A DNA stretch of 64,000 bases from a virus (Duplodnaviria; Caudoviricetes): IMG/VR virus record IMGVR_UViG_3300023060_000001, positions 65,543 through 129,542 of that record, one strand, 5' to 3'. A program made the translations under genes and the position numbers. The notes beneath the pieces are model-generated. The model had not been told where the DNA came from. It did no database searches and saw only the letters and a program-made list of their open reading frames with translations. Of the stretch, positions 21,523 through 62,383 are shown piece after piece (the first letter of the stretch is position 1; each line of letters opens with the position of its first letter).

Positions 21523-22789
21523 TTGAGTATAAACTATGTTACTAAAAGTAATGGTGATGTTGTAGAGTTTTCTCCTGACAAATTGAACCGTATGGCAGAA
21601 TGGGGTTCGACCATAGGGATTTGTTGGTCAGGGTTGGTTTTTGATGCATTACGTAAAGTAGAAGATAAATGTTCAACACAAGAATTACAACAAGCATTAA
21701 TTGATGCGTGTTCCGATAAGAAAACCCCTGAACATTTAGATATGGCAGCAAGACTATACTTAGGTTCTTTGTATAAAACTGTACACGGAGGTTTCGAAGA
21801 GAGACCCTCTTTACCAGACTTCTATTATAAAATGACTTCTGCTGGTGTATGGGAATACATGGATTATGATGACTCTGACTTAGATTATCTTGATAGTGTT
21901 TTGGATAATGATAAAGATTTGAACTATAAATTATCTACAGTAAAACAAATAAGTACAAAATATGCAAAGAAGCTAAATGGTGTAGTTTGTGAAACACCTC
22001 AATATGCTTTCATGGGTATTGCAATGAAGGTGATGGAAACTCAACCTGATGAGCGTAGACTAGAAGATGTTGAGAAGTTGTATACATACTTAAGCGACCT
22101 AAAGATTAATATGCCGACACCTTTCTTAGCGGGTTTGAGAACTTCTTTTAAAGGTTTTGCTAGCTGTTGTGTAATCAAGTCAGAAGATACTGCAGACTCT
22201 ATTGAGAATTTAGTACATGCTGCTTATAAGTTTACTAATGCGTCATCTGGTATTGGTTGTACGCTAACCACTCGTTCTGTTAAAGATCCTATAAGATCAC
22301 AACCTGATAAACATACAGGAAAGATACCTTATTATCGATATTTACAAGGAGCGGTTAAATCTACTAAGCAGGAAGTTAGAGGTGGTGGTGCGACAGTCCA
22401 TTACACTGTACTTGACCCAGAAGTAGAAACCTTGTTAAGACTGAAGCATCCCACCACAATAGAAGATAAGCGTATACGTGGGCTTGATTATTCAATGGGG
22501 GCAACAAAACTATTAGCTGAAAAAGCTTCTCGGAAAGAACCTTGGATGTTAGTGTCTTACTATGATTCTCCTGAGTTATATGAAGCACATTTTAAAGGTT
22601 ATGACGAGTTTAAGAAAGCTTATCAAGATTATGAAAAGAGTGAAGGTAAGAAGAAGTTTGTTAACTCTTTTGAAGTATTAAAACTATTCTTGACTCAACG
22701 TGGTGATACAGGTCGTAAATACCACACTTGGTTAGACGAAATGAATACACATACACCGTTTAAAGATACAATCTATAGTAGTAATCTGT
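21523..22789 (+). CDS. nrdA: Class Ia ribonucleotide reductase alpha subunit, exon 1
   Basis: ATP-cone start (VTKSNG), PTP, ASCC, RGG; ends SSNL plus first base (T) of the catalytic Cys codon. Confidence 0.95.
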
Positions 22790-23011
22790 GAAATGACGCA
22801 GCCTTACGTGGGGACACGTATTGAAGAATTGGGTGAATTGACTGGAAAGCTAAGAGGTTTTACCTTATGCCAATCAGCAGCGAAGCTCTAAGGATAGAGA
22901 ACGTTCAGAGACTAGTGGAGTTTGAGAACTTAATTACCACATTAGCGCCCAACACCTAGAACAGGTGATGATATAGTCCGATACTTGTAGAAATATAAGA
23001 TTAACATTGAG
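22790..23011 (+). ncRNA. Group I self-splicing intron (IA-like), 222 nt, no endonuclease ORF
   Basis: Exon U at 22789 and terminal G at 23011; P1 CUGU/GCAG with U.G; P10 UGAC/GUCA; P 22836-48, Q 22872-81, R GTTCAGAGACTA 22903-14, S ATGATATAGTCC 22968-79; P3 TTGGGTG/CGCCCAA; splicing restores SSNLCQEIFLP. Confidence 0.95.
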
Positions 23012-31251: not shown

Positions 31252-32200
31252 GAAAACGAGATAAGATTAAAAATATAACACCTTTTATATTTGGAGCACT
31301 TTGGGCAATTGTGTTCTGGTTAATGGGTGTCACCACTGAAGGAGGGGATTCACTATTAATCGTGAGTGGATGGATAGCTTTGGTGTTAATGAGTATCCTT
31401 GTCACAGATGAAGGTATTGACCTTTTCGACAAGAATGATAATGAAGAGGATGATTAATTATGAGTAGTATAGACGAATTTAATGAAAATAACCCTTTACT
31501 AATAGATCCTACTTTCTGGGTTAATAGTGCTTATGGTAAATTAGAAGGTAGTAAGGAAGGAGAATTACTTAAACTAAGTAAGATTGTTAGTGTAGGTACT
31601 ATCTTTATAACAACATTAAACTCCCAGTATAGGTATTCTTTCACAAGTAGTGCTGCTGCTGATTATTTCTTTAAAAGAGTGAGAGAGTTAAAAGAGGATG
31701 GGATTATTTCATGAAACAATATACTCACGTAAATCAAAATCACATCAGGAAAAATATAAAACTTCCGCCAGAAGAAAGATTACCTGTTGTGACAAGTAAA
31801 ACTTATAAAGACAATAACTATTTCAACAGTGCAGAATTAGTTTGTAAAGACACTGGTAAAGTTGTGGCAAGGGTGGTATATTCTCCTGATAAACCGTTAA
31901 GTTGTGGGTCGCGTCTTTATATCCTAACAGACACAGATGATATTGAAATAAGGGAGATGACTGATGGTGATAGTTGATATACATTTAGGAAGATTGGGTA
32001 TTATTGAAGGAGATTCCAAACGTTTATTGGAACCTTATGTCGATAGTAGATTATTTTCACAATGGAAATCTTATGATGAATACACTGTTGACACTGATAG
32101 TGTTAAAATTAGAATGGATATCAAGGATTTATTTATACTTTCAGAAAAGTTTATTGTCACTGTAGGTAATGGTTGGGTAGAATTGGAGGAAATAATTTGA
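31239..32200 (+). other. Four small hypothetical genes (31239-31457 membrane, 31460-31714, 31711-31977, 31964-32200)
   Basis: Coupled ORFs. Confidence 0.65.
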
Positions 32201-32772
32201 ATAAAAGTTTAATGTTTAGCAGCGATAACCAAAAATGGGCGACCCGAGAAACCACTCTTAGAAGCATAGAACAGCAGTTAGGACGTTCCTACAATGTTGA
32301 CCCCTGCTGCGAAGAATCCACCGCAAAATGTAAGTTATTCATCACACAAGAAGATGACTTATTTAAAGTGGGTAGTATTCGTGATAAGTTTAACCTTCCT
32401 AAAGTGGAAATGTTTGTCAATCCGCCTTATGGAACAATGCAGAAGAAGTTTGTAGAAAAGGTAATCACTCTGTGTGAAGAAGATAACGTTGTTGCGGATA
32501 TATTAATCCCCTCTCGCACAGATACTCAACTTTTCCACGATGTTATCCTTCATAAAGCAAATGCTGTATATTTTATAAAAGGTCGTATCACATTTGGTGA
32601 TGATGCTTATTGGCAATGGGTGTGGAAACAAGAGTTCATTGATGGAAAGAAGAATAACCTTTATCAGAAGTTTGGTAAAATGAATCCAGCACCATTTCCT
32701 TCGATGGTAGTATCTGTTGGTGGAAAGGGTATTTTCCAGATGAGTACATTACAATTGGAGAAGGAGAGATAA
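32197..32772 (+). CDS. Phage-type DNA N6-adenine methyltransferase (T1/HP1 Dam-like family)
   Basis: W.T, DPCC, FVNPPYG, LIPSRTDT..FH, FIKGRITF, APFPS; TTG start after GGAGGA. Confidence 0.88.
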   Translation: MNKSLMFSSDNQKWATRETTLRSIEQQLGRSYNVDPCCEESTAKCKLFITQEDDLFKVGSIRDKFNLPKVEMFVNPPYGTMQKKFVEKVITLCEEDNVVADILIPSRTDTQLFHDVILHKANAVYFIKGRITFGDDAYWQWVWKQEFIDGKKNNLYQKFGKMNPAPFPSMVVSVGGKGIFQMSTLQLEKER

Positions 32773-43486: not shown

Positions 43487-45241
43487 ATGGCTAAACAATT
43501 TTACAATGAAGATTTTATTAAAAATAACACGTACCAAGTACCAACAAGGAAATCTTTTACTGATTTGACAGGAGAAACCTTCGGGAAGGTTAGTGTGGTT
43601 TCTTGGGCTGGCATTAACAAATATGGAGATTGGAAAAAGGTGAGGAACGTTTGGTGGTGTAAATGTTCTTGTGAGGAAACGGATTACTTTTTAGTGGATA
43701 AGGCTAGTCTCCAAAAAGGTTTAACTACCTCTTGCGGGTGTAATTACAAAAATAATAATTCAGGAGGAGGAGATAGATCAAGTATAGAGGAAGCCTCTAA
43801 CGCACTACTACCTAATTATGAGGTTTTAAGTTACAGAGGGAGAAAACGCCCTTGCAAGGTGAAGTGTAATGATTGCAAGGAAGTGAGAAATTTCGATACA
43901 TTCTACAGTGCTCAACAAAGAGGTGTATGGTGTTCCTGTAAGGACAGAGACAATATTGTAAAAGATATAGCTGAAAGTGTTAACTATACCTTTGTAAGAA
44001 GGCTGCCTAATAATAAGATGGAAGCTAGTTGTAATAACTGTGGTAGTTTGCGGTCTGCTTATACTAGCACATCTTGTTGGGTGGATGAGTGCCCTTGTAA
44101 GTACGATGTTGATATGGAAGATAATAAACCTTCTTGTGTTTACTTCAACATAGACGAGTACAATCCATCTTATTATAAAATAGGAAAAGCCGATGAACCT
44201 TATAGTCGTTTAAATAAGGTTATGTCTAGTGTGAAGAAAGAGGGTTATGGAGACAAGCATAAATTTAAAGTAAAACATGTTAAATGGTTTGCTAATAAGT
44301 ATGTAGCACTTCAAGTAGAATCTATGTACCACCAATGGTTAAAAGATAAAGCAGTGTATGGTTTCAAGGGTACTAAGGATACCAATAAAGTGTTTGATGG
44401 ATGTACTGAACTTTTTGATGTATCTAAAGAAGATATAGAAGAGTTTAACAAGATCTACAAAACCACCGTAGATTATTTTGAAAAAGATAAACCTGAATAT
44501 GTGATATCTAAAGATTTCAGTAGTGAACTTAATATTCAAAAACCTAAAGGTAAGCTTGGAGTTGATGTTTGGTTCCCTAGGATAGGTAAGCTATATGAGT
44601 ATATGCACTTAGAAAGAAATGAGTGGAAAGATGACATAATATACAGCAGTGATAATCTAATAAAAGCTTATTGTAATATACGAAAAAGAGAGAATGAGTT
44701 GTTGTTTGAAGTTGACGGAGATTATTATAAAAGCTCTAAAGACTTCTACGAACAGTGGTGTCATTTAGCTGGAACAGGTTATAATAATTTCAGGGATAGG
44801 ATTTTCAATAAAAATAAAGGGGTTTGGTTGGCACTTACGGAAGGTTCTATTAGAGGTAAGAGAAACACCTTTGTTGATATTGATGGTGTACAAAAACCTT
44901 TAATAGAGATTTATAACAGACACAAACCCATAATATCCTATAGTAGCTTCAAGGATTACTTACTAGAAGGAGTTTCTATAGAAGAGCTTGTTTACAAAGT
45001 ACCTGAGATTAATATGACAAAGATATATTTGTACAAAGGTAAATACTACTCCAATGTACAACTAGCTTCAAAACTAGAACTATCTTGCCGCAAACCCACT
45101 TTCTACAACAGATTAAGTAATGGTTGGGATATAGACTTAGCCAGACTAATACCTTCTAATAATAAATTTAGGTATGAAAGAATCACCACTGACCTCCAAA
45201 ATATCTATCCTGAAATATTCTTAAAATTAAAAGAGGAGTAA
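43487..45241 (+). CDS. Large homing-type endonuclease (Zn-finger repeats, GIY-YIG/T5orf172-like domain, C-terminal HTH repeats)
   Basis: DLTGETFGK...WWCKCSC...TTSCGC; several CxxC; VYF...YYKIGKA...DGCTELF; FYNRLSNGW. Confidence 0.7.
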   Translation: MAKQFYNEDFIKNNTYQVPTRKSFTDLTGETFGKVSVVSWAGINKYGDWKKVRNVWWCKCSCEETDYFLVDKASLQKGLTTSCGCNYKNNNSGGGDRSSIEEASNALLPNYEVLSYRGRKRPCKVKCNDCKEVRNFDTFYSAQQRGVWCSCKDRDNIVKDIAESVNYTFVRRLPNNKMEASCNNCGSLRSAYTSTSCWVDECPCKYDVDMEDNKPSCVYFNIDEYNPSYYKIGKADEPYSRLNKVMSSVKKEGYGDKHKFKVKHVKWFANKYVALQVESMYHQWLKDKAVYGFKGTKDTNKVFDGCTELFDVSKEDIEEFNKIYKTTVDYFEKDKPEYVISKDFSSELNIQKPKGKLGVDVWFPRIGKLYEYMHLERNEWKDDIIYSSDNLIKAYCNIRKRENELLFEVDGDYYKSSKDFYEQWCHLAGTGYNNFRDRIFNKNKGVWLALTEGSIRGKRNTFVDIDGVQKPLIEIYNRHKPIISYSSFKDYLLEGVSIEELVYKVPEINMTKIYLYKGKYYSNVQLASKLELSCRKPTFYNRLSNGWDIDLARLIPSNNKFRYERITTDLQNIYPEIFLKLKEE

Positions 45242-46800
45242 CATCCTCTTCCTTCCTGAAATACATACAAAAATATTCTGACACTACGCACATCACTAAG
45301 AAAACCCACTTTGACCAAAAGTATAAAATATTAAATGAAACTAAACCCTCTAACAGCGATTGGATATATTGTGTAAGTGTTAATGATTATTATTAAGATT
45401 ATTATTTATATTAGTGTTATTACTTCCTTTAGGGTATTAAGTTTCACACAAGGTAATTTTAGAAAAAATTTAAAACCGCTTCTCGAAATGGGGGGTGTGC
45501 CTTTGGTAAACGTACATTTTAAAATATTATTACGGGTTGGTGAAGGTAACCTTGTATAAAAGGTAATTTCCTTAAATATCAAACATTTATACGAAAGGTG
45601 TTGAGCGCCATTACCAACCCCCTTCATCAAAATCGACCTCCGTATAAAATATCTATCCCCTTCCCCGCAATAGTCCACTTCCCTCAATAATAACAATCCA
45701 TTAACACATAACTACCCTTTATAATAAAGTGATTCCCTATTCATAAAACAAATTGAACATAACATATGAAATAGGAAGACCTATAAATTGTTACATTATC
45801 ACATTCACCAAAGTATTATCCCCATTTGTTTTATAATACCAATTCCTACAATAAAACAAAGATTACCCCACTTTATGCAATTATTACATTGTGTTAAAAG
45901 TATTAACATTTAATCAATATTTATTCAATTAGTGTGGGAAGTGGGATAATACTTTTTAAAGTGGTTGATATTGTGTTACTTTGTAACAAAAGGATTCGGG
46001 AGTGGGATAGATTGTGGCATTGCGTTTTTAAGGGGTTAAAAACACCAACACCAAAATCCCTCCCCCTTTCCCTCATCCCCAACTATAACCCAATTAGCTA
46101 ACATTTGTTTACACGTAAACAAGAATAATTACCATTTACCACTTTGTGGTGAAGTATCTCCCTTTGTTACGTTGTAACGAATTACAATCATTCTAATACG
46201 TTGTATTAATCTCTATCCCTTATTATACATACAATCACTAATTACTAAGCGCTATTCCTATAAGCTTTACAAGCTAATCTATAACTCCTTCTATCACATA
46301 AAAACACTTTAATCCTATGTGATAAACAGACACCATCACAAAAGGTAATTTTTATTATATCTTTTATTACATATATAATAAGTATCAGTAATACATTGTT
46401 AGAATAGATACCTACTAAGCTTAATATTTACTGTAGTGTAATGTATCCACTTTATTATTAAGTGTTATCAAACGTTGTTAAAAGGGGTTTATATTTCATA
46501 TAACAGTATGATGTTATTAATATTTATAGTTGTTAGAAGTGTGTTTTATAAAGTGGGATTTCCTTGTTGTAAGAGGATACCATTGTTTTGAAAGTGAACA
46601 ATATTAGTTCAAATTGTAGGTTATTGTGCAACAAGGTGTAATTATTGTTTTATACTGGGTTTATAAAACAAAGTGTTATGATTTTAACAGGATGTGTTTA
46701 TATTTGGGCTAGGTTATTTTGAAGAAGGTTATTATATTTTACAAAGTAAAAAGCCCACCGGTTAAAGTGGGCTTTTTTGTTACACAAGGCTTTTTATTAC
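45242..46800. other. 1.5-kb non-coding palindrome-rich region; candidate genome terminus and/or origin
   Basis: No credible ORF; AT-rich tract 45380-45425; A/T tracts then G6 at 45490-45495; many inverted repeats. Confidence 0.6.
46748..46778. terminator. Bidirectional terminator
   Basis: AAAAAGCCCAC-cggttaaa-GTGGGCTTTTTT. Confidence 0.85.
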
Positions 46801-46803
46801 AAA

Positions 46804-47013
46804 TTATCTTTTAAAAGTGGTGCAGCTACGAGTGTTTAACTCACCTTTAAGTTTTACCCACTTCGAGCCACTTTCACACATAACTTTGGCCATTGCCATT
46901 CTATCAGATTCTATCTTTTTATTAGCTTCAGATAATCCACTACCAATAAAAACTAATACGATAATAGAAAGAGTAATAATTGATAAAGTTGTGGCTATAG
47001 TTAAAGTTTTCAT
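46804..47013 (-). CDS. Small membrane-anchored/secreted protein
   Basis: Hydrophobic N-terminus; own promoter TTGCAC-17-TAATAT at 47061-47089. Confidence 0.7.
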   Translation of the reverse strand: MKTLTIATTLSIITLSIIVLVFIGSGLSEANKKIESDRMAMAKVMCESGSKWVKLKGELNTRSCTTFKR

Positions 47014-47119
47014 AATGTAACGCCTTTTGTAATAAATGATTGTTTTGCTTCAGTAGGTTTATATTATCAAATCGGGTTATAATGTGCAACTATTAATTAC
47101 ACATTATTTCAAATTAATT

Positions 47120-47269
47120 TTATTTGTTATATTGTTCTTGTTTTTCTGCTACGTACTTTTTAAAGGCTTCATCATTCATAAAACCCGTTATTGTTAACAT
47201 ATCTACGTTTGTGTTAGAGTTTTGGATTTCTACTAAAATTGCCCATTCTTTTGAATCATACCTATTCAT
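47120..47269 (-). CDS. Small hypothetical protein (49 aa, not in track)
   Basis: MNRYDSKEW...; own promoter and RBS AAGGG. Confidence 0.6.
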   Translation of the reverse strand: MNRYDSKEWAILVEIQNSNTNVDMLTITGFMNDEAFKKYVAEKQEQYNK

Positions 47270-47662
47270 AATGTTAACCCTTTAAATTAAAAGCCCTTGC
47301 ACCATTGCTTGAGCCGATACTATCGTAAACGATAAAGGTATATTACACCAGCTAAATTTTAATTACAACACCTTTACACAAATTAAATCAAATTATTTCA
47401 AACAAACCAACTTAATCTAATAACCCGCAGCCAATCCAACACAAGCACCACCACCAACGCACACGGCACCATTAACCACAATAAGCTTTTAACAAAGTTA
47501 ATCCCTTTGTGCTTAAATGTTCTCTTCTTCATATAAGCTTGTGTGCGTTTTGAATAAAATTGATTGTTTGTCATTGTAACACCTATTTATTAAAAATTAT
47601 TTTATTAAGATGCAAACATTGTTACATATTCACACCAATAAAACAACTTTTATTTTGCAAGT

Positions 47663-47848
47663 TTAATCTAAATCTATAATTTGAGGGTGATCCCAGTTGC
47701 CAACATTTTTCATAGCGTAGTCACAAATAACACCCGTTTTAGCTTTGATCAATTCTATCGCATGATCCTCACTATTAGCTTGTACACGGTAACAATCATA
47801 AATGTATTTACAGCTTGCAGAATGTTTAAACGCTTTGAAGTAATCCAT
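47663..47848 (-). CDS. Small hypothetical protein
   Basis: Own promoter and RBS AAGGA. Confidence 0.7.
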   Translation of the reverse strand: MDYFKAFKHSASCKYIYDCYRVQANSEDHAIELIKAKTGVICDYAMKNVGNWDHPQIIDLD

Positions 47849-47948
47849 AATAAAATCCTTAAAAAATGGCTAACCCAACGCCAGCCAACAAATACATATT
47901 AAAACAAATCTGATCACATTGCAACAAATGTTTTAATATTATTTCAAA

Positions 47949-48240
47949 TTAAATACGATTACCCAAACGATCAACAACACTATTGATCAATCCTTTGTAC
48001 TTTTTACTAAATTTAATACCCTTTGCTGCAGCATAGTCCACAACATAAACATTTAAAGATCTGCCACTTTTAAAATTTATTGTTATATTCATTGTTTTGT
48101 ATTCCTGTTTAAAATTATAATAAGCTGATTAAAAATGACAACATTGTAGCAAGTGTAACACATAAACCCGCAATAACTAACCACTGATTACAACGAATTG
48201 ATTTTAATTTAAGTTTTAACCTTTGTTTAAATGTTATCAT
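47949..48240 (-). other. Two small genes not in track (48115-48240, 41-aa TM; 47949-48092, 47 aa)
   Basis: RBS CAGGA before each; promoter at 48303-48331. Confidence 0.55.
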
Positions 48241-48377
48241 TTTTAATTGTCCTGTTGTTAAATTGTATTGCCTAGCTGAGTGTTATCGTAAACGATAGAT
48301 AAATAATATTACATTTTGCCAAACAATACAAACCCTTTTTGCAAATTAATATTATTTATTTTAATAAATACATTATT

Positions 48378-48665
48378 TTAAACTCTCTCATTAATTGACA
48401 CCAACGCACCATTTTTAAACACCACTTTGTAAAAAACATTATTTATATATAAACTATGCTCCCCTTCCGCATTCAATTCTAACAAGCTTTTAAAAGCGTT
48501 CAGGATGCATTTAGACTGTGTTTTACCCATTGCACCAAGTGAGCGTTCTAGACCTTGTAAACGTAGCTTAGCGAAAGTATCCGCCTCATCTCTTTTTAAT
48601 TGTGCTTTAGCTTGTGCAATTTGTTGATCTTGTTGACTAGGGAATAAATTCTTAAATAAACTCAT
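48378..48665 (-). CDS. Hypothetical protein
   Basis: 95-aa ORF in leftward cluster. Confidence 0.65.
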   Translation of the reverse strand: MSLFKNLFPSQQDQQIAQAKAQLKRDEADTFAKLRLQGLERSLGAMGKTQSKCILNAFKSLLELNAEGEHSLYINNVFYKVVFKNGALVSINERV

Positions 48666-48693
48666 AGTAAAGGTTCTCTTTGTTTAAAGGTGG

Positions 48694-48739
48694 TAACAAT
48701 CGTTATAACGATTGTTATAGTGATTGTTATAGTGATTTT
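48694..48739. repeat. Perfect 24-bp palindrome followed by a 12-bp tandem repeat
   Basis: TAACAATCGTTATAACGATTGTTA (48694-48717); GATTGTTATAGT x2 plus partial copy. Confidence 0.9.
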
Positions 48740-48867
48740 AAAAACTGTTTAGCTTTTCGGGCATTCTTGCGTTCACGTTTTAATATGTCTTGATCCTGTT
48801 TGAATTGGTCACTTTTTGTATGTGGTTTGTTTTTGTTGCTGCGTGTTGTTTTGATAAAGTTTGTCAT
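48727..48867 (-). CDS. Small basic protein (46 aa, not in track)
   Basis: MTNFIKTTRSNKNKPHTK...RERKNARKAKQF. Confidence 0.55.
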   Translation of the reverse strand: MTNFIKTTRSNKNKPHTKSDQFKQDQDILKRERKNARKAKQFLKSL

Positions 48868-48928
48868 TTTTGGATGCCTTTTTTTAAAGTTGGGAGGTTG
48901 GCGGGGAGTGTCCCGCCGTTGTTGGTTA

Positions 48929-49282
48929 TTAAAATTTAAAGTTTTTCATTAAATTGAATGCTAAACGATTCCAGTATTGATCTAATTCTCTATCCCTCTT
49001 AGCTTCAGTTTCATGACCTGTTAACACTCCCCATTGTTCTAAACGTAAACCTATATCATAATAAGTATAATCAACGTTTAAAGCTAAACCCATTAACCAC
49101 TCTTTTATATTATCTTGACGACTTAGACGGTTTTCATTCCAAGCGTATTCACTAACGTAACGGTTAAAAGCATATTCAAAGAGTTGCTCATCCGTTGGGT
49201 TTTCTATTTCATGATCTTCATCAGCGATAACAGTTAATAGGTAAGCTTTGATTGCTGGCGCGTAGTTTTTACGTGTAGTCAT
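48929..49282 (-). CDS. Hypothetical phage protein
   Basis: MTTRKNY...; promoter TTGACA-17-TAGAAT. Confidence 0.75.
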   Translation of the reverse strand: MTTRKNYAPAIKAYLLTVIADEDHEIENPTDEQLFEYAFNRYVSEYAWNENRLSRQDNIKEWLMGLALNVDYTYYDIGLRLEQWGVLTGHETEAKRDRELDQYWNRLAFNLMKNFKF

Positions 49283-49385
49283 AATAATACTCTCTTTTAA
49301 AATGTAAATTTTGCCGTAATTGGCGTTTTGTTTCAATAATGTAATTCTAGTTTAATTGGTATTTGTTGTCAATAAAAAGTTTTAA

Positions 49386-49601
49386 TTAATTTAAATGAAT
49401 TTTTCCTTCAGCAACCACCGAGCCATTAACAACGTTATAGCGCTTTTTATTAACTGGCTTAACACTTGGCATAATAGCCGCCCATTTATCGCCTGTGGCC
49501 TTTGTACGCTCGTTTGATTCAATTTTAACAAGTTGGTCGGCCTTCACTAATTTGATGAAATTGCGTAAAGCTGTACGTGTTTGGAATGTGAAAGTTTGCA
49601 T
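49386..49601 (-). CDS. Small basic hypothetical protein
   Basis: Own promoter TTGACA-17-TACAAT. Confidence 0.7.
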   Translation of the reverse strand: MQTFTFQTRTALRNFIKLVKADQLVKIESNERTKATGDKWAAIMPSVKPVNKKRYNVVNGSVVAEGKIHLN

Positions 49602-49710
49602 AATTGTATAACCTTTTTAAAATGTAACTAGCTAATTGAGTGTTAACTTTTTAAGTTGTGTTAATTGTAGTGGTTAACGTTGGAGTTGTCAACCGCTTTT
49701 TAATGTTTAT

Positions 49711-49917
49711 TTATAATTTTTTAACCGATCGGCCTTTACCTGTAAAATGAAAAGCCGCTGTTACATTTTCAGCGATTGACAGATCAACACCTTTTAAAGC
49801 TAGTATACGATCGTGCGATGATCTGGAAAAACAAGGCGGACCCATGTAAAATGTTACAAAGCGTGTTTTATCTTGAGATACAAACACCATACAATCTTGA
49901 TCTATAGTACTATGCAT
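49711..49917 (-). CDS. Small hypothetical protein
   Basis: Own promoter. Confidence 0.65.
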   Translation of the reverse strand: MHSTIDQDCMVFVSQDKTRFVTFYMGPPCFSRSSHDRILALKGVDLSIAENVTAAFHFTGKGRSVKKL

Positions 49918-50020
49918 AATAGAACCCTATTCTTAAAAGTGGCTAGCCCGTTGCCAGCCAATAGCATCGTAAACGATGTAATAATATTAATTCAATTGAT
50001 TATTGATTGCAAGTGTTTAT

Positions 50021-50404
50021 TTACTCAAATTCAAAAGTTTTTAATTTATTTAGAAGTTGATCTAATTCTTCAAAATCAAAGTCTTGTAAATCGTTATCAA
50101 AGCCGCCAAAAACAACGCGCCAAGGGTGATCACTACCTTGTAAATAAACTACTTGTATATAATCCCCTGTTTCATCTTGTGCCATCTTACAATGATCAAC
50201 AATACTTTTAATATTAGATAACACTTGATCATATTCTGTTATATTAGAATAAATCACATGCCCAACGTTAACACTATAAAAATCGTCCACTAGATAAATG
50301 TGATTAGTTGGAACAGTTACAAAACTTTGATCCCCGTCGTCTAATGTAAAATTGTAATTTTCGCCTAGTGCTTTTTGAATTTTAGCTTTTAATTGTAAGT
50401 ACAT
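50021..50404 (-). CDS. Hypothetical protein
   Basis: Promoter TTGACA-16-TATAAT. Confidence 0.7.
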   Translation of the reverse strand: MYLQLKAKIQKALGENYNFTLDDGDQSFVTVPTNHIYLVDDFYSVNVGHVIYSNITEYDQVLSNIKSIVDHCKMAQDETGDYIQVVYLQGSDHPWRVVFGGFDNDLQDFDFEELDQLLNKLKTFEFE

Positions 50405-50519
50405 AATATATTACCTTGTTAATTAGCGGCAGCGTTTAACTACCTTGTGTTAATTGTTCGTTGTTTCAATACCTACGTATTATAAGGGTATTTAAGCCAC
50501 TGTCAACAAGTAAAAACGA

Positions 50520-51026
50520 TTATTTTAAATATTTTTTAAACCTTGTGCTATAAACCTGCCAGTCGTGATCATCAGCTACAACATTTTTAAAAACGCTATT
50601 ATCAATGTTAGTATATTTGATCACCGTTGTTAATGTGTAATCTTTTTTACGTAGATTAAACCGCTCTTGCAAACGTTCAATTAATAAAGCGTGATCCGTT
50701 GGTGTCGGTGTCCAATCATTACAGCAAAGATCTTTTATGCTTTTATCTAATTTGTATAATTCAACTTTAACATTTTTATCATGCTTGATCCCTCTTGCTT
50801 TTAATTCACGTTTTAAAAGTCTGTGGCGCTTGGCTAAGTATAACAACTTATTTCTAAAAAATTTAACATGCCCAGCGTTTAATGTGTAATTTGCTGGTAT
50901 ATCCTTTTGTTTAAAGCGGTGCGGATGTTTTACCAATTCATTAACTATTCTAGGCAATTCGCGCCATTCAGCTAATAACCATTGATCAGTTAGATCGGTT
51001 GGTTCAATAGTATTAATTCTAGTCAT
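50520..51026 (-). CDS. denV: Pyrimidine dimer DNA glycosylase / endonuclease V
   Basis: MTRIN...LTDQWLLAEWRELPRI and YTLNAGHVKFF match T4 EndoV, including catalytic Thr2 and Glu23. Confidence 0.92.
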   Translation of the reverse strand: MTRINTIEPTDLTDQWLLAEWRELPRIVNELVKHPHRFKQKDIPANYTLNAGHVKFFRNKLLYLAKRHRLLKRELKARGIKHDKNVKVELYKLDKSIKDLCCNDWTPTPTDHALLIERLQERFNLRKKDYTLTTVIKYTNIDNSVFKNVVADDHDWQVYSTRFKKYLK

Positions 51027-51139
51027 AATATAAAGCCTTTTCTTAAGTTGTTTCAGCAAGTACAAAGGTATATTATTTTTAAGATAGTGTAAACACTTTT
51101 TATTAAAAGAATTAATTTTAATTTAATTGTTATTTTGTG

Positions 51140-51169
51140 TTGACAAGGTAAAACCTTTACTTATATAAT
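51140..51169 (+). promoter_or_regulatory. Consensus sigma70 promoter
   Basis: TTGACA-18 bp-TATAAT. Confidence 0.7.
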
Positions 51170-51212
51170 AGCGGGACACAAACAAAGATATTATTTAAAA
51201 AGGGCGTATATT

Positions 51213-51353
51213 ATGAATTTCACATATAAACTAGTGGCTAAAGATCAAGACGGAAAGATCCATACTAAAGAAGGTTTTAGTCCTATGCGATTAGATGTGT
51301 TTGCAAGGACCAATATTAAAAGCAAAGATTACACTATAATAAAGTTAAATTAA
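51213..51353 (+). CDS. Small hypothetical protein (46 aa, not in track)
   Basis: MNFTYKLVAKD...; promoter upstream, hairpin downstream. Confidence 0.6.
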   Translation: MNFTYKLVAKDQDGKIHTKEGFSPMRLDVFARTNIKSKDYTIIKLN

Positions 51354-51611
51354 CCAACAAAAAGCCCTTGCAATTAAAAGTGTAAGGGCTTATACTTTCT
51401 AACATAGTAAAACGGATTGTTTGAAGATATACATGCTCCGATCGTGTAATTCCTGCGAGCGCCTGTATGCGATTTTAAGAGGTTGTTTTAATAAAGGTAG
51501 TTTTGCACAAGTAACCTGTTAATAACGTCACACGGTTTAAACTAGTACCCTAATTTTCAAAGTTAACAATTCATACATAATTCATACCGTCAATTTTTTG
51601 GCGTATTCCAC

Positions 51612-51663
51612 TTATCCACCGATCTTATACATTATCCACAAGTTACCCACAGACTTATACAAA
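51612..51663 (+). promoter_or_regulatory. Cluster of DnaA boxes
   Basis: TTATCCACC 51612, TTATCCACA 51632 (perfect), TTACCCACA 51643, TTATACAAA 51655; all same orientation. Confidence 0.75.
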
Positions 51664-52040
51664 CGTGATACGTTATAACATAACAATTATTTTGATATAA
51701 TATAACATTGCTGAAGTGATTACGTTTTTGGTAGATGAGAGTAGCCGTCTGTACAAATTTTATCCTATTTTGATGAGATGAAAAACGTGGACGGATTCTA
51801 ACCTTTTGATTTTAAACGGGTTTATCCTAGATAAAACGAATGGCGAGTTCCGAAATTTCAATAATCATTTTAACATCAGGGACTAACTTTACAAAAGCAG
51901 TCTATCTTAAATCAGATTTACACCCTTTTCTAAAATCCAATCCACTTCACCATAAATGAAATTAACCGCAAGGATGTTATTTGTCAATAAGACCGTCTCC
52001 ACAACAGCCACCCTCCCATAAGGTGATTATCCATTAGGCA

Positions 52041-52088
52041 AAAGAAAACCCCTTGTACGCTGTGTGAAGGCGCAGAAGGGGTTATTTT
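52041..52088 (-). terminator. Terminator ending the leftward early operon
   Basis: AACCCCTT/AAGGGGTT stem flanked by A and T tracts. Confidence 0.65.
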
Positions 52089-52114
52089 GTGTTAAGGTTT
52101 ATCCTTTGGTGAAG

Positions 52115-56814: not shown

Positions 56815-58116
56815 TTAACTTTCCTTTACAATATAACAGTTATCACTAAAGCCTAACACGTATTCATAAGCCTTGTGCATAGTTTCCTTCAATTCTTTTT
56901 CCTTTTCAACGGTGCATCTAAAATCATCATGGACTTGAATCACTAATGTTTTATGGTTTTGAATCATACTATCAAGAACAAAATCATTTATTTCAGCTCC
57001 GACATTTTGTACACAATAACCCCTGTGACTACTAAAGAAAACTTCAGCTATCATATGGTGGTGATCTAGCATTATTTCTATCACTTCTGCTGTAGGTATC
57101 ATTTTAGAAGGGATTTTACCCTTTTTGTAAAGGTTCTCCAGATCCATGTTCTCACTTATCCACATGCTTAAAGCTCTCTTGGCCTGTGTTATGTTATCAC
57201 AATTTAAGCAGATTATGAATACAGCTTTGGCTAATTTACGGGCAGTTTTAACTTCATAACCTTTTTCGTGTAAAACCTCTAGTGTATACGGATCACCTTC
57301 CATAATCTCTTGTTTAATAGAATACGCGATAGATGGTTCAAAACCTTTGTAGTCGTAACAGCAGGTCTCCTCTCCGCCAATCACCACTTCATCTCTCTTC
57401 TCTCCATTTAACCTTTGATATTCACTAACCATTATAGACCTCCCACCGTGATCAAAATCTCTATTAAATACTTTATAAATTTGTGCATCTAATCTTGTAT
57501 CTCTGAAAGTAACTTCTACTTCCCTACTAAATTTATTGTATCGGTTTACATAATCAACTTTTTGTCTTGTTACTTCGTTAGTTCTGTAAGTTTTATCTTT
57601 TTTATTACCATGTGTATCTTCTTCTCTTAATATTAACACGTTATCTAAAGCATCAAAAGTGTCAGGTTTGGAGACATACTTATCGTATAAAGTTTTTAAT
57701 TTATCATTTACCTTGAAGTAACTTCTAGAAAATACAGTAGCTACCCATTGCTTATCCACAAAACCATAATCTTCAACTTCACCTCCCACAGTTAAATCTC
57801 CGTAATCTTTCTGATTTAAAAATTGGAATAGAGCTTTGGTGTAGGTATAACTAACTTTTCGTTTAGTATCTCGCCCATTAACTATAATCTTTTTGGAATA
57901 GTTTGTCTGGTCTAAAGTTATACCAAAAGTATCTCTTTTTGAAATGATACTTTTATTAAGGTTCAGAACGAAACATCCGACAGAAGCTTTTATAAGTTTT
58001 CTTTTATTTTCTGTTAACTTTACAAAATTATCCTCTAAATATTCTTCAAAATCCCTTACCAAAACCTCCCTTAATTTGAATAAATATTTAGGTATTTTGT
58101 GGTCTATCTTATACAC
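56815..58116 (-). CDS. Minimal family-A/T7-RNAP-superfamily polymerase-like protein
   Basis: HGGR, motif A CYDYKGFEP, motif B RKLAKAVFIICLN, QNVGAEI, motif C QVHDDF; no exonuclease motifs seen. Confidence 0.7.
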   Translation of the reverse strand: MYKIDHKIPKYLFKLREVLVRDFEEYLEDNFVKLTENKRKLIKASVGCFVLNLNKSIISKRDTFGITLDQTNYSKKIIVNGRDTKRKVSYTYTKALFQFLNQKDYGDLTVGGEVEDYGFVDKQWVATVFSRSYFKVNDKLKTLYDKYVSKPDTFDALDNVLILREEDTHGNKKDKTYRTNEVTRQKVDYVNRYNKFSREVEVTFRDTRLDAQIYKVFNRDFDHGGRSIMVSEYQRLNGEKRDEVVIGGEETCCYDYKGFEPSIAYSIKQEIMEGDPYTLEVLHEKGYEVKTARKLAKAVFIICLNCDNITQAKRALSMWISENMDLENLYKKGKIPSKMIPTAEVIEIMLDHHHMIAEVFFSSHRGYCVQNVGAEINDFVLDSMIQNHKTLVIQVHDDFRCTVEKEKELKETMHKAYEYVLGFSDNCYIVKES

Positions 58117-60402: not shown

Positions 60403-61317
60403 TTAAAATTCTAACCAAGGATTACCTACATTCACAACATTCAAACCTAAATCATACTTGAACATTCGTGAAACTGTAGGACGGTCATCTAATACAAGTT
60501 TCACATTGTAATTATGGTTTACATACTTGTTAAACAATTCTTTCTTGATAATAGTGTCTTTTCTACAATCACCCTGTGGGCGCATGTATAAATGGAAGTG
60601 ACCTTCCAATTCAGGGAAATACTTTTCAATCCAAAGTTGAGTATCTTCCATGCAAATAGAATCTCTCCCTGACATAAAGATAGGAACATAACCTTCTGCA
60701 ATAAGACCTTTTGCCATATGAATAATTTCGTAACGAGGAAAATCTTCTCCAACTTTATCCCATTCAAAAGGAGAGCGGTTGTGCATAGAAGCCAACGTGC
60801 CATCAATATCTAGTATTACCGCAGAAGGAACATCTTCTTTATTAGGATCATGCCAATTCTTCTTAAGGAAGCCGTCTGCGTAGTTTTTATATTGAGAAGT
60901 GATAACCTTATACCCAACACCAGAAAACCTCTTAGCGTCCCTCTCAAGGGATTCTAATAGGTCAACATGAAACACCTTCCCCTCAAAGGTATAATTCTTT
61001 AAACAACCCCACGTTTTAAAGTAATCTATATACTTTGGGTTAAGGTTGGTATCACTTATGATAATATTCTTACCCTTTTCAGTGGCATCTTTGATTAAAT
61101 GATGTTGCAACTCTGTGACTAATGCTTCATTACCTTTTGTGAATTTGTACTTACTCCAATCAATAGTTCCTCCTGTGAACAAGAAACCTCGGATGTCATC
61201 ACGATTGATATTAACCCAAGAATTCTTATTGTTCCCTTGAGAAAGGAAGTCATTAACCCAAGTGGTCTTTCCTGAACAACTAATACCTACTGTATAAATA
61301 AGTTTCTTACTTCTCAT
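60403..61317 (-). CDS. pseT: Polynucleotide 5'-kinase / 3'-phosphatase
   Basis: GISCSGKTT, NRDDIR, ISDTNL; HAD DIDGT, SGR, DDR. Confidence 0.93.
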   Translation of the reverse strand: MRSKKLIYTVGISCSGKTTWVNDFLSQGNNKNSWVNINRDDIRGFLFTGGTIDWSKYKFTKGNEALVTELQHHLIKDATEKGKNIIISDTNLNPKYIDYFKTWGCLKNYTFEGKVFHVDLLESLERDAKRFSGVGYKVITSQYKNYADGFLKKNWHDPNKEDVPSAVILDIDGTLASMHNRSPFEWDKVGEDFPRYEIIHMAKGLIAEGYVPIFMSGRDSICMEDTQLWIEKYFPELEGHFHLYMRPQGDCRKDTIIKKELFNKYVNHNYNVKLVLDDRPTVSRMFKYDLGLNVVNVGNPWLEF

Positions 61318-62383
61318 CTAAATTCTCCAATGTTGCCTCTAATAACTTAATCTTATAAGAATCTTTTAGATTATGCAACACTTTTAAAGGACAAACTCCA
61401 CTATTTCTTGCTTGGAACATGACACCTGAATAAAACACTTTATTATTAAGTGCAAATTCCTTTTTGTCTGTGATGCCTTTAGTTTTATTAAACTGAGTAA
61501 TACATAATGATTCTAAAGTATTCCATGCTGATACGAAAGGTGTGAAGTATTCCTTATCCTCAGGAAACACTGCTAAGTACTCATCTAGTTCCCTTATTAC
61601 AACTAATTCCTTAGCACGTTTAGGTGATAACCCTTCTCCTTTTAATCTATGACCTATGAGGTACTGAGGAGATTTGACCTTCACAACAGGGATTCCCTCC
61701 TTATAACCAACATAACCTTCTTCTAAATTTGGTAGGTGTTTTAAACTTTCCATACATTCTTGTGTTGTATTAAAAGAGTATTTTCGTGGAAGGTGGTATT
61801 TAGTTGTAACAATTTCCGAATAATCCCCACTAAGGTTATGTCTAATTGCTAAAAGGTAAGCTCTGTCCTCAAGGTAATTAACCACAACACGATTCTCTCT
61901 TCCAACTATTTCAAAGATGTACGTACAAGACTTATCCAAACCTTTCATGTTGTCCCAATCTAAAGCAGATTCTATTAAGTCTTTCCAAGTGCGATCCCAT
62001 CCTTGAACAGATAGTAATGGCATTAACATACTCTTGGTACGATACATCCAACCATATGGTTCACAATAGAATACACTTATCAAACTCCCATCCACCTTTT
62101 CGTAAATGGTTAAATCTTCGAGTTCAAAAGTTATATCGTTTTCTCCTTGGTTGAAGAATCTATCAAAAGCACGACTTACCACAGAGTATGTTACACCATC
62201 TAATTCTTCTTTTATTACAAGAGATCGACACTCTCGTACAATAGGATGATTTTTAGGTGAATCTATTTGGTTATAATTTAACACTCTTAGGTTAGGAAAC
62301 CTTTCATCAACAGAAACTTTGATTGAAAATTCCTCTACTAATTTTTCTAAACCATATTTGTTCAAATATTCTAATACTTTCAT
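61307..62383 (-). CDS. rnlA: RNA ligase 1 (T4 Rnl1-like)
   Basis: ECRSL, AFDRFFN, EKVDGS, FEIV, EEGYV, KVKS. Confidence 0.9.
   Translation of the reverse strand: MKVLEYLNKYGLEKLVEEFSIKVSVDERFPNLRVLNYNQIDSPKNHPIVRECRSLVIKEELDGVTYSVVSRAFDRFFNQGENDITFELEDLTIYEKVDGSLISVFYCEPYGWMYRTKSMLMPLLSVQGWDRTWKDLIESALDWDNMKGLDKSCTYIFEIVGRENRVVVNYLEDRAYLLAIRHNLSGDYSEIVTTKYHLPRKYSFNTTQECMESLKHLPNLEEGYVGYKEGIPVVKVKSPQYLIGHRLKGEGLSPKRAKELVVIRELDEYLAVFPEDKEYFTPFVSAWNTLESLCITQFNKTKGITDKKEFALNNKVFYSGVMFQARNSGVCPLKVLHNLKDSYKIKLLEATLENLDEK

Follow-up and report, generated by a model that had tools for sequence, protein, structure and literature searches.

A GATC-dense array of small genes, edged by DnaA boxes, in the GATC-poor genome of a marine Pseudoalteromonas phage

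The subject of this analysis is an array of small genes and its non-coding flanks (positions 45,242 to 52,088) in a tailed phage represented by IMG/VR record IMGVR_UViG_3300023060_000001. The window, i.e. the whole 64,000-nucleotide stretch that was analysed, comprises bases 65543-129542 of this 129,542-bp viral record, and all feature coordinates are given as window positions. The phage (hereafter the window phage) is a marine Pseudoalteromonas phage whose closest relatives are the Pseudoalteromonas phages J2-1 (Qingdaovirus) and H101 (Shandongvirus), and GATC is positively selected within its array and purged from the remaining genome. A first-pass annotation of the window had described the locus as an island of spatially ordered host chromosome signals, with matS-like palindromes in a GATC-free left part, dense GATC over the genes in the middle, and co-oriented DnaA boxes at the right edge. 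Scanned against null expectations, the palindromes, GATC sites, and DnaA boxes are each non-random, and J2-1 and H101 show each of them at the corresponding position. Hence, the GATC and DnaA signals of that proposal are genuine and conserved, while its MatP component and the terminal position it assigned to the island were not supported, as detailed below.

Organization of the locus

Rightward-facing genes end at 45241, and the genes between 64000 and 46804 face leftward, so that positions 45242-46803 form a convergent, open reading frame (ORF)-poor gap, to the right of which lies the small-gene array (Table 1). Near-consensus sigma70 promoters (score 11-12 out of 12) are found within the array at 50506, 49692, 49372, and 48141, and the density of such promoters is about five times that of the genome overall. 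The same layout, endonuclease V (endoV) followed by individually promoted small genes, is also found in J2-1, in H101, and in four more distant metagenomic relatives reached via endoV homologues, one of which carries an AcrF8-like gene in its array. No further relatives besides J2-1 and H101 were found in IMG/VR, and scanning Joint Genome Institute (JGI) metagenome contigs for the motifs and with an endoV profile did not recover any either. In family searches against Pfam and PHROG, the array and other island proteins gave no more than two matches, namely endoV and a PHROG of unknown function (phrog_11100). Based on its promoters, the block may represent an array of early accessory-gene cassettes transcribed by the host RNA polymerase, a proposal that we weigh below together with the role of its GATC sites.

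The gene content of the array is a mosaic. EndoV is 92-94% identical to its J2-1 and H101 homologues. Across two phage genera, endoV and two neighbouring genes share about 90% nucleotide identity, the remaining array genes being unrelated, and most of the H101 array is not nucleotide-homologous to that of the window phage. This suggests either recent exchange of the endoV block or a strong constraint acting on it. To the right of endoV, about 650 bp of non-coding DNA, which hold the DnaA boxes, separate the terminator of the divergent unit from the bidirectional terminator at the right boundary.

Two kinds of small structured elements were also noted within the array. An identical hairpin-forming 12-mer, ATCGTAAACGAT on the plus strand (ATCGTTTACGAT on the coding strand), occurs at 47322-47333, 48285-48296, and 49966-49977, in each case just downstream of the -10 element of an array promoter, and is specific to the window phage, being absent from J2-1 and H101. 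In addition, two array genes have a GC-rich hairpin with a U run placed after the promoter and ahead of the ribosome-binding site (47867-47887 and 49935-49961), which looks like a 5' leader or attenuator.

Table 1. Features of the array, its flanks, and the phage methyltransferase, in window positions
Feature	Position	Strand	Description
Dam-family N6-adenine DNA methyltransferase	32197..32772	+	191 aa; PF05869, E 2.8e-15, 56.8 bits (cut-off 28.1)
Non-coding region	45242..46803	.	1.56 kb between convergent gene blocks; GC 30%; no GATC; no convincing ORF
Palindrome GTTACTTTGTAAC	45975..45987	.	Same site in J2-1 at 56914
Palindrome GTTACGTTGTAAC	46166..46178	.	Second copy, 191 bp from the first
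Bidirectional terminator-like hairpin	46752..46778	.	agcccac...gtgggct, then T run; closes the leftward array; read from sequence; repeats D8, I5
Small-gene array	46804..51026	-	13 genes of 41-168 aa, each with its own spacer (~100 bp); several near-consensus sigma70 promoters
GATC-dense tract	47689..51624	.	32 sites, 27 in array coding sequence, mostly as in-frame GAT-Cnn
Endonuclease V (DenV, pyrimidine-dimer glycosylase)	50520..51026	-	First gene of the array; PF03013, E 4e-16; phrog_1183, E 2e-47
Divergent unit	51140..51391	+	Perfect sigma70 promoter 51140-51169, 46-aa ORF 51213-51353, terminator 51362-51391; kept in J2-1
Conserved non-coding element ttcctgcgagcgcctgtatgcgattttaag	51450..51482	.	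30 nt; near-identical in J2-1 and H101
Three co-oriented DnaA boxes	51612..51651	+	TTATCCACC at 51612, TTATCCACA at 51632, TTACCCACA at 51643, within 40 bp
Extended -10 promoter-like site between ATAACAT repeats	51666..51708	+	TGaTATAAT at 51693-51701; read from sequence
Bidirectional terminator-like hairpin	52046..52090	.	Right boundary; read from sequence

GATC is enriched in the array and purged elsewhere

Avoidance of GATC by phages of Dam+ hosts is an old observation, and the three phages conform to it, with GATC at about half of its expected frequency genome-wide (observed/expected ratio (O/E) 0.50-0.58). Each of them nevertheless carries one GATC-dense block, located beside endoV. In the window phage this block contains 32 sites in 4.3 kb, compared with a maximum of 25 across 2000 random placements, and the corresponding figures are 35 sites in 4.8 kb (maximum 26) for J2-1 and 49 sites in 8 kb (maximum 33) for H101, so that the dense GATC initially reported over the gene-bearing middle clearly exceeds chance. 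This amounts to about 7.4 GATC per kb in the window phage island, vs 1.9 per kb genome-wide and 1.7 per kb in the remaining phage genome. The GATC-free left part, on the other hand, is not a feature in its own right, since zero sites in about 2.4 kb is near the baseline of a depleted genome. Markov-based O/E values for GATC are 2.5, 2.1, and 1.8 in the arrays of the window phage, J2-1, and H101, respectively, and 0.52, 0.51, and 0.43 outside of them, and among the 16 palindromic tetramers GATC alone displays opposite signs inside and outside the island.

As most of the island is coding, we compared GATC counts to a null in which codon order is shuffled within each gene, which preserves both amino-acid content and codon usage. 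Array genes contained 27 sites vs 10.3 expected in the window phage (z +5.8), 28 vs 13.0 in J2-1 (z +4.6), and 36 vs 19.1 in H101 (z +4.3), while all other genes deviated in the opposite direction (197 vs 342, 172 vs 318, and 175 vs 359, respectively, with z from -8.5 to -11). The same contrast is visible at the level of individual codon junctions: in the three arrays pooled, 31.5% of the codons following GAT start with C (background 14.4%), vs 6.0% elsewhere (background 13.2%), and no comparable shift towards C-initial codons was observed after the control codons AAT, CAT, TAT, GAC, and GAA. The dipeptides Asp-[Pro/His/Gln] are three to five times more common in the arrays, hence the GATC bias reaches into protein sequences. 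The H101 array is GATC-dense although mostly non-homologous at the nucleotide level. In the more distant relatives the trend is the same but weaker, as their arrays only escape the avoidance seen in the flanks (C after GAT in 14-21% vs 4-11%). A longer motif containing GATC was considered and rejected, given that the flanks of island sites resemble those of GATC sites elsewhere in the genome, with only a mild preference for TGATCA, the commonest hexamer form in the island (9 of 32 sites).

This pattern could in principle arise as a neutral by-product, if cassettes were acquired from GATC-rich sources or if the small proteins themselves favoured GAT-CAx codon pairs. The mosaic array, with its endoV block shared across two genera, would fit such an origin, as would the many sites that read GAT-CAA or GAT-CAT. 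However, the excess is found in three arrays of largely different genes and in all three reading frames (0.26-0.44 vs 0.10-0.16 for the G-ATC junction), it is specific to the GAT-C junction among the control codon junctions, and the density in the array is four-fold above that of the host. In a 200-kb Pseudoalteromonas sample GATC occurs at 1.9 per kb (O/E 0.82), with at most 19 sites per 4.3 kb vs 32 in the island. We thus consider a neutral origin highly improbable.

A separate signal of avoidance concerns CCGG, which is almost absent from the window phage (5 sites in 125 kb) and from J2-1 and H101 (O/E 0.06-0.11 over the three genomes). This is the strongest avoidance signal detected, and suggests that these phages are under strong pressure to evade a restriction system specific for CCGG.

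For GATC itself, restriction could in theory account for the pattern if a GATC-directed nuclease purged the tetramer from the genome and the array were protected, or irrelevant, at the time when this nuclease acts. Genome-wide GATC depletion is indeed the classic signature in phages of Dam+ hosts, and in phage T5 site avoidance is position-dependent and tied to injection order (10.1101/866236). Such a nuclease would not, however, bring the array two-fold above the codon-preserving null, which goes beyond a mere lack of depletion; a single cut would be lethal at any position; and there is no sign of entry order in these genomes. CCGG (O/E 0.06) is also purged inside the GATC island, which is therefore not simply exempt from site avoidance. 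On balance, we deem an effect of restriction or entry order very unlikely.

The host machinery needed to methylate GATC and to read its methylation state is available. Dam (PF02086), SeqA (PF03925), and MutH were each found in 4 of 4 Pseudoalteromonas genomes, as anticipated by the first-pass annotation for Dam and SeqA. Likewise, the phage gene at 32197-32772 that it had called Dam-like matches the Pfam family "Dam" (Table 1) and is 96% identical in J2-1. H101 has no PF05869 Dam homologue, and instead encodes an N6_N4-type enzyme. Since H101 nonetheless has the island, the phage methyltransferase is not required for the pattern, and host Dam would be sufficient for any model.

DnaA boxes and palindromes in the flanking non-coding DNA

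The co-oriented DnaA boxes reported at the right edge of the island were recovered, and are kept in both related phages. Measured against TTATCCACA / TTWTNCACA, one of the three boxes of the window phage is exact and two have one mismatch, TTATCCACC and TTACCCACA falling outside the strict TTWTNCACA form, and a triplet of this kind would be expected by chance somewhere in the genome with a probability of about 0.04. A GATC site (51621) abuts the first box. The corresponding position holds two perfect boxes with a spacing of 19 bp in J2-1 (p ~0.002), and in H101 four perfect boxes, with a further four perfect boxes and one with a single mismatch, inverted, at the far end of the H101 array. In total, 8 of the 9 perfect boxes of H101 lie in two inverted modules bracketing the array (p < 5e-6). 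In all three phages the proximal cluster is found upstream of endoV at a distance of 600-770 bp and on one and the same strand, and as the sequence around them is barely alignable, the boxes themselves appear to be what is kept. For comparison, one Pseudoalteromonas genome contains only 31 perfect boxes in 4.2 Mb. A cluster of paired boxes was also seen in one metagenomic relative, where it lies distally in the array.

A very AT-rich tract (90% AT) and a conserved promoter come after the boxes in J2-1 and H101. In the window phage the TGaTATAAT site faces right, towards some 340 bp without coding sequence, and this block is 88% identical in J2-1. Taken together, these comparisons show that paired DnaA boxes of the high-affinity type hold a fixed place and orientation at the array edge, beside predicted promoters and AT-rich DNA. 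The reverse strand of the H101 record also carries, at ~51600-51800, four or five direct repeats of the AATGTTAAC type with a spacing of ~20-35 bp, beside the proximal boxes, and these look like iterons.

Such an arrangement is reminiscent of a bacterial origin, and the modules of DnaA boxes, promoter, and AT-rich DNA could represent one or several replication origins opened by host DnaA and transcription, with the GATC density around them serving the origin through easier melting, SeqA, or membrane attachment, as at oriC or P1 oriR. DnaA boxes, GATC, and promoters are the established grammar of these two origins, and several observations are in line with it: the AT tract and conserved promoter after the boxes in J2-1 and H101, the iteron-like repeats and two inverted modules of H101, and a phage annotation that includes a primase-helicase and a polymerase and no recognisable initiator. 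This contrasts with the extent of the GATC enrichment, which covers 4-8 kb of coding DNA instead of a compact origin, with a GC skew that has no inflection at 51.6 kb, and with the location of the modules within a block of co-directional transcription. In the window phage no 13-mer-type repeats of a DNA unwinding element (DUE) are seen, only the ATAACAT repeats around its promoter-like site, and the box-associated sequence is, except for the boxes, poorly conserved. We thus consider an origin mimic unlikely as the explanation of the locus.

Other elements were identified in the same non-coding DNA. The ttcctgcgagcgcctgtatgcgattttaag element was not found in other viral or metagenome contigs, and conserved non-coding elements of the studied stretch were likewise not found in the relatives reached through endoV homologues. 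A conserved structured non-coding RNA around this 30-mer, or 3' of the DnaA boxes, was considered and rejected, as three-sequence alignments were poor and gave no convincing covariation. No known RNA family was detected above chance between 45.2 and 52.2 kb, and searches for Fur boxes and sigma54 promoters in the studied stretch gave nothing above background.

On the other side of the array, the convergent gap contains many short inverted motifs (AAAGTGGG / CCCACTTT and GTAACAA half-sites), and a k-mer search for iterons returned solely the enrichment of GTAACAA and AAAGTGGG half-sites. The gap is partly conserved in J2-1 (82.8% over 45668-46181), and its H101 counterpart is 1.9 kb long and non-homologous. 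The sequence GTTACNNNGTAAC, of the form GTTAC-N3-GTAAC, occurs twice in the gap (45975 and 46166) for a window expectation of 0.04, and none of 100 shuffles reached two copies. The AAAAGGA flank of the first copy is inverted relative to the second (pair I8). In J2-1 the second palindrome, GTTACTATGTAAC at 57107, keeps its arms with a changed central triplet and a spacing of 193 bp, and H101 has one GTTAC-N3-GTAAC copy in its non-homologous gap. All three phages carry an additional copy, GTTACAATGTAAC, which overlaps the TACAAT -10 element of a TTGACA-N16 promoter; the conserved gene that follows encodes about 380 aa. The gap is bordered by a 584-aa ORF (43487-45241) with weak GIY-YIG, T5orf172, and MUG113 matches, which is probably a mobile endonuclease gene; J2-1 has at this place a different ORF on the opposite strand.

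These palindromes had been interpreted as matS-like sites that may recruit or titrate host MatP. Their two copies are non-random, but they are not matS sites, because their arms differ from it at the symmetric third base (GTTAC/GTAAC vs GTGAC/GTCAC): neither GTTACTTTGTAAC nor GTTACGTTGTAAC fits the 13-bp matS consensus GTGACRNYGTCAC, and the matS form GTGACNNNGTCAC is absent from the genomes of the window phage and J2-1. Recruitment of MatP is also contradicted by the host, as neither MatP (PF06303, PF17414; found in the E. coli control) nor MukB was detected in any of the four Pseudoalteromonas genomes, all of which have SeqA. Nor is GTKACNNNGTMAC enriched or clustered in host chromosomes, with 20-22 occurrences per genome vs 18 for the control, scattered over both chromosomes. 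The likeness to the MatP/matS system of the Ter macrodomain is hence limited to a 13-bp palindrome of 5+3+5 architecture in a convergent, "terminus-like" gap, and differs in its arms, in a host devoid of MatP and MukB, and in a copy that overlaps a promoter -10. This corrects a tempting over-reading of the motif in a host without the MatP/MukBEF system. Instead, the palindromes are operator-like, and may be sites for a phage regulator.

Elsewhere in the window, a group I intron (Rfam RF00028, 91 bits, full-length match) was identified at 22780-23000 inside a nucleotide-metabolism gene block, and genes for polynucleotide kinase (phrog_505) and RNA ligase (phrog_562) lie next to each other at 60403-62383, forming a T4-like tRNA-repair pair. 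No tRNAs were detected in the window.

Possible roles of the island and comparison with known systems

The reading that we favour, with a probability of roughly 0.4, is that of a sigma70-driven array of early cassettes whose DNA would be selected for reading by host Dam/SeqA and DnaA, either for the silencing of early genes after replication or as an origin-linked domain. We reasoned that selection on GATC which runs in two directions depending on location requires an agent that acts differently on genes according to the place, or the time, of their use. Hemimethylation arises only after replication, and it would therefore be harmless or useful on genes needed before replication, and harmful on genes needed later. 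A reader of hemimethylated DNA fits these constraints better than a nuclease does, which is why replication-coupled silencing or sequestration by SeqA/Dam is favoured. Under this scheme, phage replication would leave the GATC-dense array hemimethylated, making it the best SeqA substrate on the genome, and SeqA binding could then silence or sequester early genes that are needed only before replication. Avoidance of GATC in middle and late genes would conversely allow these to escape the effect of SeqA, and also MutH, while the DnaA boxes may tune the adjacent rightward promoter to the DnaA state of the host, or mark a DnaA-assisted origin.

Several observations weigh against this scenario. The "early" timing of the array is deduced from its promoters alone, and individual GATC sites in aligned blocks are conserved only marginally above baseline (22 of 27 vs ~65%). 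Short spacings between GATC sites (n = 63) cluster near half-turn offsets of 5-7, 15-17, and 26-28 bp, although this periodicity is weak in a low-power test (Rayleigh p 0.015-0.04, phase -4 to -5 bp); the same-face spacing preferred by SeqA is thus not supported, which is mildly unfavourable. The density of the islands (6-7.5 per kb) is far under that of E. coli oriC. Finally, DnaA-box clusters within 10 kb of endoV are absent in 3 of the 4 distant relatives.

A more specific version of the silencing scenario, which we regard as doubtful, is that the phage uses the hemimethylation clock of its host as a timer, the first round of replication handing the array to SeqA and the box modules to DnaA. 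Early genes would then be switched off, or the DNA tethered, without a phage-encoded repressor, and the GATC loading of the early array would be strong enough to reshape the dipeptide content of its proteins. If true, this would be a form of replication-coupled epigenetic temporal control not described for lytic phages. Whichever mechanism applies, we found no precedent in the literature for a GATC block of kilobase scale that is under positive selection in a phage genome otherwise purged of GATC, nor for a conserved block of this type edged by DnaA-box modules. The fact that a single genome selects for and against the same tetramer provides a quantitative handle on the effects of Dam, SeqA, MutH, and DnaA on an infecting lytic phage, and direct tests are possible in culture, with H101 on P. 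marina and with J2-1.

The nearest analogue of the locus is the first-step transfer (FST) region of T5 with its injection stop signal (iss) (10.1101/866236; NC_005859). Both combine strongly promoted small early genes with an adjacent untranslated region rich in palindromes or inverted repeats, close pairs of DnaA boxes (2-3 bp apart) are a further shared trait, and the two inverted box modules of H101, several kb apart, recall the IRD'spacerIRC' + IRCspacerIRD arrangement of T5. The spatial order of the motifs and the model proposed for T5 in which DnaA boxes act in the injection stop (itself only a hypothesis; 10.1101/866236) lend some appeal to the model of the first-pass annotation, in which a terminal, first-injected island would recruit or titrate MatP on its left side, and SeqA and DnaA towards its right, so as to position the genome, gate its injection, or prevent initiation in the host. 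We consider this model barely credible. Besides a host genus without MatP and MukB and a palindrome that is not matS, no sequence support was found for a terminal, first-entering position: the record begins and ends with the same 127 bp, an exact overlap of the kind left by circular assembly, as opposed to a mapped terminal repeat. The studied stretch is therefore 12 kb away from a record end that is arbitrary, and in the records of all three phages the island is internal, unlike the T5 region, which lies in a mapped 10-kb terminal repeat. T5 carries the pre-early genes A1, A2, and dmp, for which no Pfam or PHROG match was obtained among 20 ORFs in and around the island. Virion genes are unrelated as well, since in a published comparison the J2-1 structural module groups with FelixO1/rV5-like myoviruses and not with T5 (PMC7289586). 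T5 was also rejected as a model for the GATC island, as it has neither GATC depletion nor such an island, including in its FST region (26 sites vs 35 expected in the terminal repeat (LTR), 127 vs 134 beyond). The presence of similar paired boxes in an unrelated myovirus-type lineage is relevant to what the DnaA boxes of the T5 injection stop signal may mean.

Returning to silencing or sequestration by Dam and SeqA as the favoured role, two further systems offer partial parallels. E. coli oriC and the dnaA promoter likewise combine DnaA boxes with a GATC density above that of their surroundings, in a host that has both Dam and SeqA. In these elements, as in P1 oriR and pac, this logic operates in non-coding DNA over only ~200 bp. 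The island differs from oriC, however, in spreading its excess over about 4 kb of coding DNA at ~7 sites per kb, when oriC is packed in ~250 bp; its short spacings also do not appear to follow a same-face register, and no 13-mer DUE repeats are seen. Phage P1 associates GATC-containing heptamers with DnaA boxes at oriR and carries TGATCA/G hexamers at pac, and is thus another phage with clustered, methylation-read GATC near DnaA boxes, TGATCA being also the commonest form in the island. P1, however, clusters 5-7 sites in 100-160 bp of non-coding DNA with defined roles, whereas the island represents a kilobase-scale bias in coding sequence, set against a genome purged of GATC.

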